Shown here in pieces: positions 23,948 to 59,914 of a stretch of 64,000 bases of DNA. Position 1 is the first letter of the stretch; every line of letters begins with the position of its first letter. The translations under genes and the position numbers were made by a program. Source of the stretch: Dehalococcoidia bacterium (GTDB lineage Bacteria; Chloroflexota; Dehalococcoidia; Lucifugimonadales; UBA1123); the NCBI GenBank assembly GCA_034420555.1, contig DAOULF010000259.1, positions 13,444 to 77,443 on the forward strand. Reading direction: 5' to 3'. The notes beneath the pieces were generated by a model that worked only from the letters and a program-made list of their open reading frames with translations, was not told where the DNA came from and made no database searches.

Positions 23948-24020
23948 CGAACTCACGACTACTCGATCCCTCCCCCGGAAGGACCTTTGCTAAATCGCTC
24001 TTAAACTCTGCACCGTCATT

Positions 24021-24134
24021 TGTATGTTGAAAATCCCCTCTCCCTCTGGGTGAGGGTGAACTGCAATTCAGTCATTCCCGCGAAAGCGGGAACCCCGAAG
24101 GGCTCGCCGCTCGGCAATCCAGGGGGAGGTGCGG
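24021..24134. repeat. composite repeat: family A hairpin followed by ATTCCC-N8-GGGAA hairpin module
   Basis: CCCCTCTCCCTCTGGGTGAGGGTG is followed by GTCATTCCCGCGAAAGCGGGAACCCCGAAGGGCTCGCCGCTCGGCAATCCAGGGG. The latter stretch of about 57 nt is identical to part of 59482..59538. Confidence 0.75.
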
Positions 24135-54307: not shown

Positions 54308-55678
54308 ATGAATCGTGCCCTTGAAGAGGTAATCGTGGTTACTAAAGAAGACTCCCGCGTGGATCTGGACAAGCTGGCTTCCCTGTGCAAGCGCAGAGGC
54401 TTCATATTCCAGAGCAGCGAGATATATGGCGGACTCGCAAGCACCTGGGACTACGGTCCCCTGGGAGTAGAACTCAAGAATAATGTCAAGAACTCCTGGT
54501 GGCGGACTTTCGTCTGGAGCCGCGACGACATCGTGGGCCTGGACGCCTCTATCCTCATGCACCCGGACGTATGGCGCGCCAGCGGACACGTCGGCAGCTT
54601 CACCGACCCCCTCGTGGAATGTCTGGAATGTCATCGGCGCTTCAGGGAAGACCATCTGGAAGGCCCGAATTGCCCCGACTGCGGCGGCGAATTCACCGAA
54701 GCGCGGCAGTTCAACCTCATGTTCAAGACCTTCATAGGCCCGGTGGAAGACCAGGCCTCCGAGGCGTTTCTGCGCCCGGAGACTGCCCAGGGAATCTTCG
54801 TGAATTTCGAGAACGTTCTGAATGCGACCCGCAAGCGTCTGCCGTTCGGCATCGCCCAGATTGGCAAGGCATTCAGAAACGAGATTACGACCGGCAACTT
54901 CATCTTCCGCACCCGCGAGTTCGAGGCCATGGAGATAGAGTATTTCGTAATGCCCGGCGAGGATGAAGAGGCCCATGAAAGGTGGATAGAAGACTGCGTG
55001 GGCTGGTACACGGATCTTGGAGTAAACCCGGACCGGATTCGTGTAAGGCCGCACGACGCCGACGAGCTTTCACACTACTCCAAGGCGACTCACGACCTGG
55101 AGTACCTCTACCCCTGGGGCTGGGGAGAAATACAGGGTGTCGCCAACCGGACGGACTACGACCTGAAGGCGCACGCCGAGGCCAGCGGCCAGAACCTTAC
55201 CTACTTCGACCAGGAAAGCGGCCAGCGCATCGTGCCATACGTCATAGAGCCTGCCGCCGGTGTTGACCGCTCCGTAATGACCTTCCTCGTGGACGCCTAC
55301 ACCGAAGAGGAGGTCTCCACGCCATCGGGCAAGACCGAGACCCGCGTTCTGCTCAAGCTGCACCCTGAACTCGCGCCCGTGAAGGTCGCCATCCTGCCGC
55401 TGTCCAGAAACGCGCGCCTCGCTCCGACCGCCCGCGAAGTATTCGAGACTGTCCAGAGGTCCGGCCTGATTCCCGGATTCGTCCAGTACGACGACACCCA
55501 GAGCATCGGCAGGCGATACCGTCGCCAGGACGAGATCGGAACGCCCCTGTGCGTAACCGTGGATTTCGATACGCTGGACGACAACGCCGTAACCATCCGG
55601 TATCGCGATACAATGGAACAGATACGTGTGCCAATCTCGGAACTCGTGCAGCGCCTTGCTCAGGACTTGGGCGCCTAG
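54308..55678 (+). CDS. glyQS: glycine--tRNA ligase (dimeric class II type)
   Basis: It has RRGFIFQSSEIYGGLASTWDYGPLGVELKNN, FRNEITTGNFIFRTREFEAMEIEYF and a C-terminal anticodon-binding domain. Confidence 0.95.
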   Translation: MNRALEEVIVVTKEDSRVDLDKLASLCKRRGFIFQSSEIYGGLASTWDYGPLGVELKNNVKNSWWRTFVWSRDDIVGLDASILMHPDVWRASGHVGSFTDPLVECLECHRRFREDHLEGPNCPDCGGEFTEARQFNLMFKTFIGPVEDQASEAFLRPETAQGIFVNFENVLNATRKRLPFGIAQIGKAFRNEITTGNFIFRTREFEAMEIEYFVMPGEDEEAHERWIEDCVGWYTDLGVNPDRIRVRPHDADELSHYSKATHDLEYLYPWGWGEIQGVANRTDYDLKAHAEASGQNLTYFDQESGQRIVPYVIEPAAGVDRSVMTFLVDAYTEEEVSTPSGKTETRVLLKLHPELAPVKVAILPLSRNARLAPTAREVFETVQRSGLIPGFVQYDDTQSIGRRYRRQDEIGTPLCVTVDFDTLDDNAVTIRYRDTMEQIRVPISELVQRLAQDLGA

Positions 55679-55779
55679 TACCAGAACCACATGAATATGT
55701 CATACTCCAGTAGCTAACCGTCATTCCCGCGAAAGCGGGAATCCAGGGGTGGGGTCAGGCTTACAACCGGCAAAACTAG
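55675..55779. repeat. miniature repeat family C, copy 2, CTAG-bounded
   Basis: It aligns with 26019..26124. Its left CTAG contains the glyQS TAG stop. The hairpin loop is GAAA here and TTTC in copy 1. Confidence 0.75.
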
Positions 55780-57158: not shown

Positions 57159-57716
57159 ATGAAGCTACCATCTTGCACATCCACCCGCTCATTCCTGATA
57201 CTGGGTCTTCTTGCGGCCCTGGCTCTGATTGTTATAGCCTGCGGCAGCGACGCTGATGACGGCGGTAGCAACGCCAACCGCGCCGCCGACTTCGAGCTCA
57301 CCCTCTACGCCAACGCCGAACACGAAGCCGGGGACACGATCAAGCTGTCCCAGTTCGACGGCGAGCCCGTCGTGCTGAATTTCTGGTTCCCCTCATGTCC
57401 TCCCTGTGTCGCCGAGATGCCCGACTTCGAGCAGGCGTACCAGAAGTACAAGGGCGACGGTCTGAGAATGATCGGCGTGCAACTCCTGGGCCTGGATACT
57501 GCCGAAGACGGTCAGAAATTCGTGCAGGACCTGAACGTGAACTATATGCTGGGTCCCGACCGCCAGGGCGACAGTTCCGGCGAGATTCTCAAGAACTACC
57601 AGATCCAGGGCTTCCCTACCACGATATTCATAGACAAAGACCAGAACATCGTCAGGACATGGTCCGGCGCCCTGAACCTGGAAAAGCTCGAAGAACTGAT
57701 CCAGGAAATACTCTAG
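57159..57716 (+). CDS. TlpA/ResA-like thiol-disulfide oxidoreductase lipoprotein
   Basis: It has the lipobox LIVIACGS and the thioredoxin fold motif WFPSCPPC. Confidence 0.85.
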   Translation: MKLPSCTSTRSFLILGLLAALALIVIACGSDADDGGSNANRAADFELTLYANAEHEAGDTIKLSQFDGEPVVLNFWFPSCPPCVAEMPDFEQAYQKYKGDGLRMIGVQLLGLDTAEDGQKFVQDLNVNYMLGPDRQGDSSGEILKNYQIQGFPTTIFIDKDQNIVRTWSGALNLEKLEELIQEIL

Positions 57717-57842
57717 GCCGTGTTGACATTTCTCGTCATTCCCGTGAAAACGGGAATCTAGGGGTGCGGGGTGTAGCTATCTTCCCTACCTACCGCAATA
57801 CCTTGAAGGCAGGGAGAACCATAGAATGTCAACAGAACCTAG
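57713..57842. repeat. MITE-like repeat family B, copy 1, with terminal inverted repeats
   Basis: The left end is CTAGGCCGTGTTGACATT. The reverse complement of the right end is CTAGGTTCTGTTGACATT (15 of 18 match). It contains the hairpin CATTCCCGTGAAAACGGGAATC. Its left CTAG holds the TAG stop of the upstream gene. Confidence 0.75.
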
Positions 57843-59459: not shown

Positions 59460-59609
59460 CTAGGCCGTGTTGACATTTATCGTCATTCCCGCGAAAGCGG
59501 GAACCCCGAAGGGCTCGCCGCTCGGCAATCCAGGGGTGGACGGGTAGCCGATTTTGTTGCTACGACGACCATCTGTATTGCTGAAACATCAAATGTCAAC
59601 AGAACCTAG
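59460..59609. repeat. MITE-like repeat family B, copy 2
   Basis: It has the same terminal inverted repeats as 57713..57842. Its internal part shares about 57 nt with 24071..24127. Its right CTAG contains the stop (59606-59608, minus strand) of the PspAA-like gene. Confidence 0.75.
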
Positions 59610-59884
59610 TCCGGCACCAGGCCCTCGCCCACAAACAGTTCCTCCGCCTCTTTCAGCGTGATGTCCGGCTCGGGCAGCACCAGGTCGGACTCGACCAGTT
59701 CGTCCAGCGGAACCGGCGTCCCTTTTTCTCGCACGAGATCGAGGAGCGCCGCCAGCGCCGGACCAAAATTCTCCTGGTCGTCCCGCTCCACCACTTCGAC
59801 AAGTTTGTTGTCCAGTTCGTTCAATTCGTCAATGAATGCGCCGGGTAGGTTGAACTGGCCTTCGGTCAGTATTCTTACTATCAT
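59606..59884 (-). CDS. PspA-associated small acidic protein (PspAA-like)
   Basis: It lies immediately downstream of pspA. MIVRILTEGQFNLP..LNELDNKLVE is as I recall for PspAA. The longest ORF starts at 59905. Confidence 0.5.
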   Translation of the reverse strand: MIVRILTEGQFNLPGAFIDELNELDNKLVEVVERDDQENFGPALAALLDLVREKGTPVPLDELVESDLVLPEPDITLKEAEELFVGEGLVPD

Positions 59885-59914
59885 CGGATTTATCTCATTC
59901 TCCAAGGACGCGCT

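Follow-up and report, generated by a model that had tools for sequence, protein, structure and literature searches.

We analyzed a 64,000-nucleotide stretch of the genome of a Dehalococcoidia bacterium (assembly GCA_034420555.1, contig DAOULF010000259.1; hereafter the window), which contains two copies of a short repeat with inverted ends, referred to as family B. With a probability of about 0.9, family B repeats are non-autonomous miniature inverted-repeat transposable elements (MITEs) that have the ends of an 808-bp insertion sequence (IS) of the IS5 family and carry, as cargo, a hairpin of the Neisseria Transformation Sequence (NTS) type. Family B combines the features by which MITEs are recognized, i.e., it is short, non-coding and multi-copy, has terminal inverted repeats (TIRs) and a target-site duplication, shows insertion polymorphism, and is matched by an autonomous element with corresponding TIRs. 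A preliminary description of the window, made from its letters alone, had already read the two repeats as non-autonomous MITEs, and had proposed counting copies in the genome, comparing occupied with unoccupied orthologous sites, and searching for longer elements with the same TIRs and a transposase; all of these checks came out in support of its reading.

Both window copies begin with CTAGGCCGTGTTGACATT, found exactly at 57713 and 59460 on the plus strand, and end in an inverted partner with three mismatches at 57825-57842 and 59592-59609 on the minus strand. These four terminal matches compare with zero expected from 100 shuffles, bearing out the earlier observation of two stretches with common ends. 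That observation had been phrased as 18-bp TIRs beginning with CTAG, of which the inverted ends stand and the length does not: the CTAG ends are half target and half element, so that each 18-nt end resolves into a C, the TA target, and a TIR of 15 bp (complementary at 12 of 15 positions, with zero matches expected by chance). The element proper spans GG to CC, and the outer C and G of CTAG are target sequence. Likewise, the extents first given, 57713..57842 (130 bp) and 59460..59609 (150 bp), hold for the repeats, the elements proper being 124 bp and 144 bp long.

Copy 1, a member of subfamily B3, occupies 57716..57839 on the plus strand, with TIRs at 57716-57730 (GGCCGTGTTGACATT) and 57825-57839 (AATGTCAACAGAACC), an NTS-type hairpin at 57734..57761 (plus strand, CGTCATTCCCGTGAAAACGGGAATCTAG), and TA target-site duplications at 57714..57715 and 57840..57841. 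Copy 2, of subfamily B2 with an additional 25-nt module, occupies 59463..59606 on the plus strand, with TIRs at 59463-59477 and 59592-59606 and TA duplications at 59461..59462 and 59607..59608. Its NTS hairpin (59481..59533, plus strand) is split by the module into CGTCATTCCCGCGAAAGCGGGAA (59481-59503), the module itself, CCCCGAAGGGCTCGCCGCTCGGCAA (59504-59528), and TCCAG (59529-59533). The same combination of NTS and module recurs at 24071..24125 on the plus strand within another repeat family (U0); this sharing had been noted before, and its length is 55 exact nucleotides (59482-59536 against 24071-24125) instead of about 57. Both copies adjoin stop codons, as the preliminary description had recognized: the left TA of copy 1 forms, with the first G of the element, the TAG stop (57714-57716) of a TlpA/thioredoxin-like open reading frame (ORF; 57159..57716, plus strand), and the right TA of copy 2 forms, with the last C of the element, the CTA (59606-59608), i.e., the minus-strand TAG stop, of a PspAA-like ORF (59606..59905, minus strand).

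The source genome is a 3.38-Mb metagenome-assembled genome (MAG) in 285 contigs, 94% complete, designated G000 here (other genomes are numbered in the same way, and loci are given as genome, contig and positions). It contains 15 exact core pairs, and 19 full copies plus fragments under a relaxed pattern. Copies have no ORF, and their length without the flanking TA is 120 bp, or 145 bp with the 25-nt module. TA was present on both flanks of 17 of the 19 copies, within a Y-TA-G context: 13 copies have C and five have T immediately before the left TA, and 16 have G and two have C or T immediately after the right TA. Because these outer bases vary independently (e.g., TTA...TAG or CTA...TAC), only the TA is duplicated.

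Aligned with the 25-nt module removed, the 19 copies show positional homology over their full length and fall into three subfamilies, B1 (eight copies), B2 (five, including window copy 2) and B3 (two, including window copy 1), plus four singletons. Identity reaches 99.2% and 98.3% in the closest pairs, which indicates that amplification in the genome is recent. The 25-nt insertion explains most of the size difference between copies; it is found in some B1, B2 and singleton members and is missing from their close relatives, so that it must have been gained or lost independently of subfamily. What had been described as swapped interiors is therefore subfamily divergence combined with a 25-nt indel, and no exchange of modules. 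Also within the interior, a second hairpin, GTAGC...GCTAC, varies among subfamilies with its stem kept (judged by eye, with no covariation count). A sigma-70 promoter in the TIR was considered and rejected: TTGACA points inward at both ends, with no acceptable -10 element 17 nt downstream (by eye).

Next, we compared the window loci with those of relatives. Orthologous loci were found in 29 of the 30 genus genomes searched, a set that includes G000. The occupied site of copy 1 reads ...GAAATACTC-TA-[GGCCG...GAACC-TA]-GCTTCGCC, and the empty site in G010 and G011 reads ...GAAATACTC-TA-GCCTCTCC; in short form, ATACTC-TA[GG..CC-TA]GCTTCG in the window corresponds to ATACTC-TA-GCCTCT in these two genomes. 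For copy 2, the occupied site ...CTGTC-TA-[GG...CC-TA]-GTCCGGCACC is empty in the closest relative, G024 (90–94% identity), as ...GTTCGTC-TA-GTCCGGCACC, and the copy is also missing from G010, G012 and G014. Single-TA empty sites thus exist in congeners for both window copies. G021 is occupied at the very TA of copy 2 by an element of a B3-type subfamily, with an interior resembling window copy 1; this is an independent insertion. In the same intergenic region, the stop (TAG) of the upstream gene, which is histidine-phosphatase-like, is occupied in G011 by a further family B copy. The TAG stops are already there at the empty sites, which means that the elements landed in existing stop codons and rebuilt them, and were not their source. 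Within the genus, the distribution is patchy, with at least six TIR half-sites in 10 of the 30 genomes; among 31 genomes searched outside the genus, two members of the same family had a single half-site each and the rest had none.

These comparisons bear directly on the possibility that the repeats are immobile, i.e., fixed in the genome and conserved as regulators or terminators at 3' gene ends. Such a function would suit their position at the 3' ends of genes, the folding of family B single strands, which exceeds that of shuffled sequences (z about -3), and the compensatory changes in the hairpin. It is contradicted by the absence of both window copies from orthologous sites of the closest congeners, which are exact single-TA empty sites, and by the independent hit of the same site by another subfamily in G021; in addition, no T-run follows the hairpins, and no known RNA family was matched in Rfam at E ≤ 1. 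We therefore give this explanation next to no weight.

An element that could have provided the transposase was found in congeners. In G015, two ends fitting the TIR pattern lie 812 bp apart (G015:C8:1385784-1386595) and enclose a TA-flanked element of 808 bp, and G003 contains two identical 808-bp copies of a related element (82% and 75% amino acid identity over the two ORFs). Further relatives occur in G009, G016 and G022, and in G046, a genome from another family of the same order, with 15 copies. All copies measure 808–815 bp, with GG at the start and a TA on either side (cTA|GG...CC|TAg or TAa). In the G015 IS, two overlapping minus-strand ORFs, A and B, meet at GTGAAAAAGGGGG, where a -1 shift would give a continuous 253-aa protein. 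This fused protein matches DUF4096 (PF13340) and DDE_Tnp_1 (PF01609), as well as the NCBIfam model for IS5 family transposases (NF033580; 265 bits, cut-off 110). By size, ORF layout, GG ends and 2-bp repeat, the partner IS appears to fit the IS427 group of the IS5 family. A layout of two coding sequences has been described for this group (PMC9241763), and on its target preference the literature searched offers an indirect statement only. In a plasmid collection, the nearest plasmid-borne IS5-family transposases were <50% identical to that of the partner IS.

The likeness between IS and MITE extends beyond the TIRs. On the right, the end of the G003 IS (ATGGCTGAAATGAAATGTCAACAGAACC) is similar to that of the MITE (ATGCCTGAAATATCAAATGTCAACAGAACC) for about 33 nt; on the left, agreement extends for 16 nt. 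An NTS hairpin is absent from all seven IS copies examined, so the MITE lineage must have acquired it. Separately, two inverted family B ends lie 2.1 kb apart in another congener (G014:C1:1438454-1440562, locus L018), with an alpha/beta-hydrolase-like ORF and a small membrane protein between them; this interval may represent either one composite unit or insertions that occurred separately. As a candidate for a transposase-bearing partner (G014:C1:1438000-1441000) it was discarded, having ordinary genes and no transposase.

A TA duplicated within CTAG is also what IS630 elements produce, as these target CTAG and duplicate the TA, and an origin of family B as MITEs of the IS630/Tc1-mariner type was our first guess. 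The genome contains two DDE_3 remnants that could be cited in its favor. Both matches are below cut-off, however, and represent short, degenerate C-terminal remnants whose ends do not match, with no family B (GGYYSTGTTGACATT) ends nearby, and the one full-length element that has these TIRs codes for a DDE_Tnp_1 transposase of the IS5 family. We consider the IS630 origin very improbable and dropped it in favor of the IS5-type partner. One degenerate IS630-type (DDE_3) remnant lies at G000:C137:5992-6126, with a tRNA gene a few hundred bases upstream.

The TA target gives stop codons a special place among landing sites. CTAG is the rarest of all tetranucleotides in the genome, with 2,685 sites and an observed/expected ratio of 0.47 (the next lowest is GATC, at 0.63). 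An open frame of at least 90 codons ending in a terminal TAG adjoins 12 of the 19 copies, compared to 30% of all CTAG sites (binomial p=0.003), an enrichment tempered by its use of open-frame length instead of gene calls and by at least one counted frame, at the right end of copy 1, that is spurious. The first base of the element is G and its last is C, so that insertion in the TA of a TAG restores TAG at the left junction and CTA at the right one and leaves the protein unchanged. With a Y-TA-G target, most intergenic CTAGs of a compact genome would be stop codons preceded by C; insertions within genes would presumably be lost, and those in stop codons, being silent, would survive. Given the rarity of CTAG and the presumed loss of genic insertions, stop codons would be the main tolerated landing sites, and we infer that selection has favored them. 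This would explain why many genes in the lineage appear to end inside a repeat, and the spurious ORFs at repeat ends are a warning for gene callers.

We then turned to the hairpin inside family B. The preliminary description had rightly singled out a conserved ATTCCC-N8-GGGAA(T) hairpin, and had missed its identity with a known motif. The NTS has the consensus CGTCATTCCCGCGMAVGCGGGAATCYRG and contains the dRS3 sequence, ATTCCC-N8-GGGAAT (PMC11893778). The family B hairpin, CGTCATTCCCGCGAAAGCGGGAATCCAG, fits this consensus at every position; in window copy 1, one compensatory stem pair differs from it (C-G to T-A). Genome-wide, 223 TTCCC-N8-GGGAA loci were found, 206 of them with a GTCA tag. 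The core GCGAAAGC is present in 136 of 202 oriented NTS loci, TCCAG is the commonest tail, and compensatory stem variants occur as GTGAAAAC (21 copies), ACGAAAGT (4) and TCGAAAGA (2). The loop is flipped to TTTC in nine of the 202 loci. In one pair with near-identical flanks (G000:C22:72-191 and G000:C122:3150-3269), an inverted loop (GCTTTCGC compared to GCGAAAGC) is the sole difference, which looks like template switching across a perfect stem, or strain heterogeneity in the MAG. Beyond this genome, a 21-mer NTS pattern with four degenerate positions was detected in 35 genomes of a class-wide sample of 201, and the exact 28-mer in more than 120 contigs from Proteobacteria, Nitrospirota, the candidate phyla radiation, Poribacteria, Bacteroidota and others, mostly as head-to-head pairs.

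The NTS unit was classed by Di Nocera et al. 2013 as a CGTC-1 repetitive extragenic palindromic (REP) sequence (PMC3733652), and a palindromic repeat with a tagged hairpin does look superficially like a REP. One could accordingly picture family B as REPIN-type elements (paired REPs) mobilized by a REP-associated tyrosine (RAYT, or Y1) transposase. The tag is CGTC, however, and not GTAG, and CGTC REPs are reported without flanking RAYT genes and to "lack a dedicated transposase" (PMC3733652). No match to Y1_Tnp (PF01797, RAYT) was found in the genome, and we regard this origin as scarcely credible.

The NTS has been shown to be bound and cut, as single-stranded DNA (ssDNA) only, by SsnA, a 94-aa GIY-YIG nuclease that belongs to a new class of ssDNA nucleases, and ssn genes of different phyla usually have NTS on both sides (PMC11893778, 2025). 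The genome studied here contains a 96-aa single-domain GIY-YIG gene (G000:C7:3944-4231; Pfam, 59 bits) with one NTS upstream (~3581, plus strand) and two inverted NTS downstream (4255 and 4388, minus strand). The encoded protein appears to be Ssn-like, and would putatively cleave the local NTS; no informative match was found for it in the PDB or NCBIfam. It is 69% identical (E 1e-48) to the product of an NTS-flanked gene in a gammaproteobacterial MAG (L097), and this identity, together with the NTS flanks in both genomes, suggests that the NTS-flanked GIY-YIG cassette was transferred across phyla. In a family designated U2 (G000:C7:4255-4560 and 13 loci genome-wide), the left half of the NTS is duplicated around a 17–19-nt spacer (ACCGTCATTCCCGCGAAAG-GAGACCTTTGCACAACT-ACCGTCATTCCCG...); downstream of the GIY-YIG gene, this unit is repeated four to five times in tandem.

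Such a nuclease gene raises the alternative that the elements move through the NTS hairpin itself, by Ssn-type GIY-YIG or other hairpin-specific nicking in a homing-like or peel-and-paste manner, the TIRs being mere extensions of the stem. The NTS is the sole block common to all repeat families that carry it, an NTS-flanked GIY-YIG gene is present, and an NTS-ssnA-NTS mobile unit has been put forward as a speculation (PMC11893778); the 25-nt module and other small insertions at fixed NTS positions would also sit well with a hairpin-directed process. Against this, the boundaries of family B are at the TIR ends with the TA duplication, 18 nt away from the NTS, an IS exists with the same ends, the same target-site duplication and no NTS, and NTS-rich congeners mostly lack the GIY-YIG gene. 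Hairpin-driven movement is accordingly very unlikely, if somewhat less so than an IS630 origin.

Several points also weigh against reading family B as MITEs of the IS5-type partner, or against parts of that reading. The left TIR of the MITE differs from the left end of the G003 and G015 IS at two of 15 positions. No homologue or fragment of the partner IS was found in the source genome (the 94%-complete, 285-contig assembly), so that current mobility there is only putative. Multi-copy ISs often fail to assemble, and the same situation recurs in other MITE-rich genomes (G010, G012, G014 and G024 in addition to G000); MITE-rich genomes without a partner IS are usual. The IS427 assignment, a probable one, follows the ISfinder criteria for the group: ~800–1000 bp, two overlapping ORFs with a -1 frameshift, a 2–4 bp repeat and GG or GA ends. 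Both transposition and the frameshift are what we infer from sequence. On the side of the cargo, close homologues of the GIY-YIG gene occur in six of 19 NTS-rich genus genomes (Fisher p=0.21), and also in some genus genomes without this NTS; the number of NTS in the genus does not track Ssn, and the link between the two is weak.

Clustering of the flanks of all NTS loci showed that eight or more other families contain the hairpin and that seven or more of these have TIRs of their own. Two families bounded by CTAG, CTAGTGC.AGAACC...GTACTAG and CTAGTACCAAG...TGGTACTAG, correspond to a "family C" of the preliminary description. Families with other TIRs include CAGGGCCTTTGCAAAG...CTTTTCATAGTC-type ends, GATTGCATAAGT...ACTTATGCAA, GGGCCTTTCGATTATTGC...GGATAACCGAAAGACCC, ATACCATTTC...TTGGTAT and CAGGGCTTGTGCAA...TTGCACA.GCCCTG. 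A family C copy in the window (55675-55779) sits in the TAG stop of glyS, and the relatives G010, G011 and G024 have no element and have kept the TAG. This is consistent with a TA insertion into the stop codon, with a downstream flank too diverged for an exact junction.

Because the NTS is cargo of family B and not of its IS, MITE transposition is a route by which the NTS multiplies. This is demonstrated for family B, and likely for the other NTS-carrying families, most of which are bounded by TIRs of their own, family C with partial empty-site support. An NTS carried within MITEs is not described in PMC11893778, PMC3733652 or the other literature searched.

The 25-nt module CCCCGAAGGGCTCGCCGCTCGGCAA cuts across these families as well. 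It is present in 42 of the 202 NTS loci (e.g., 59504-59528 and 24094-24118), in nearly every repeat family and always between the GGGAA and the TCCAG of the NTS, and it was not found beside the NTS in 120 contigs from other phyla. The base most important for Ssn binding is a C (PMC11893778), and in this genome the module separates the stem from that C. Another repeat within the NTS is U0 (window 24014-24125, ~20 copies genome-wide), where a sequence of ~56–76 bp, TGTATGTT.AAAATCCCCTCTCCCTC.GGGAGAGGGCTAGGGTGAGGGTGAACT.CAATTCA, lies within the 5' tag with GTCATT on both sides (CGTCATT|...|GTCATTCCCGCG); U0 looks like a small element inserting into the NTS itself.

Taken together, these data suggest the following scheme. 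Family B would be mobilized in trans by the DDE transposase of the partner IS, which persists in congeneric species and is absent from the assembly of the source genome. The transposase would bind the 15-bp TIRs (GG[C/T][C/T][G/C]TGTTGACATT) and insert the element at a TA, preferably in a C/T-TA-G context, with duplication of the TA. At every insertion, TAG would be re-formed at the left junction and CTA at the right one, the termini rebuilding stop codons and not donating them. The interior comprises (i) stretches from the two ends of the IS (~16 nt on the left, ~33 nt on the right), (ii) the 28-nt NTS hairpin, i.e., a dRS3-containing, CGTC-tagged REP and published ssDNA target of Ssn GIY-YIG nucleases, (iii) the optional 25-nt module between GGGAA and TCCAG, and (iv) the second, subfamily-variable GTAGC...GCTAC hairpin, with its stem kept.

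Any role of the NTS hairpin in this scheme would be putative. It is possible, if doubtful, that the hairpin is not a passive passenger, and has been taken up repeatedly, or recombined, into at least eight families for the benefit of the element or the host. In that case, and with the same reserve, MITEs moved by ordinary DDE transposases may be the vehicle by which CGTC-REP/NTS sequences spread, including in genomes without ssn. Ssn nicking of the extruded ssDNA hairpin could then stimulate copying or repair, or restrict incoming DNA, and the 25-nt module at its fixed position, like the insertions in the NTS, could have been left by a second activity, one that directs insertion to the hairpin. 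As a MITE, family B is ordinary and a matter of routine annotation. The NTS/dRS3 hairpin occurs from Neisseria to candidate phyla and its multiplication is an open question in the literature; family B offers a concrete case that makes this multiplication testable in a defined system.

Compared to IS5-derived MITEs (IS427 group) and to bacterial MITEs in general (Correia/NEMIS, RUP, Nezha; PMC3733652), family B shares short non-coding elements, TIRs that match an IS, TA duplication, multiple intergenic copies that are polymorphic between close relatives, and a long hairpin fold. It differs from IS5-derived MITEs in that its interior is not simply a deleted IS and carries a foreign REP-type hairpin, and in that its G...C termini together with the TA duplication rebuild TAG stops. 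From IS630 elements, with which it has the duplicated TA within CTAG in common, it is set apart by the transposase (DDE_3 there, DDE_Tnp_1/IS5 here). With the NTS/dRS3/CGTC-1 REP systems (PMC11893778; PMC3733652), the elements have in common the fit to the consensus, the CGTC tag, an 8-bp stem starting from AT, a 4-nt loop and a CCA-type tail, as well as hundreds of copies and an NTS-ssn-NTS gene layout in the genome. In contrast to the NTS of Proteobacteria, which for the most part are free-standing or form head-to-head dimers or clusters (PMC3733652), the NTS here are single units inside TIR-bounded, TA-flanked elements that belong to several families. The CGTC-REP survey lists no Chloroflexi among CGTC hosts (PMC3733652), and the text of PMC11893778 names no Chloroflexi or Dehalococcoidia. 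Finally, the genome-wide picture is modular, as it is for the NIMEs of Neisseria and the BIMEs of E. coli, which are likewise mosaic intergenic repeats around a dRS3 or REP hairpin; NIMEs, however, are RS units flanked by dRS3, whereas here the hairpin is the internal cargo of TIR-bounded elements.

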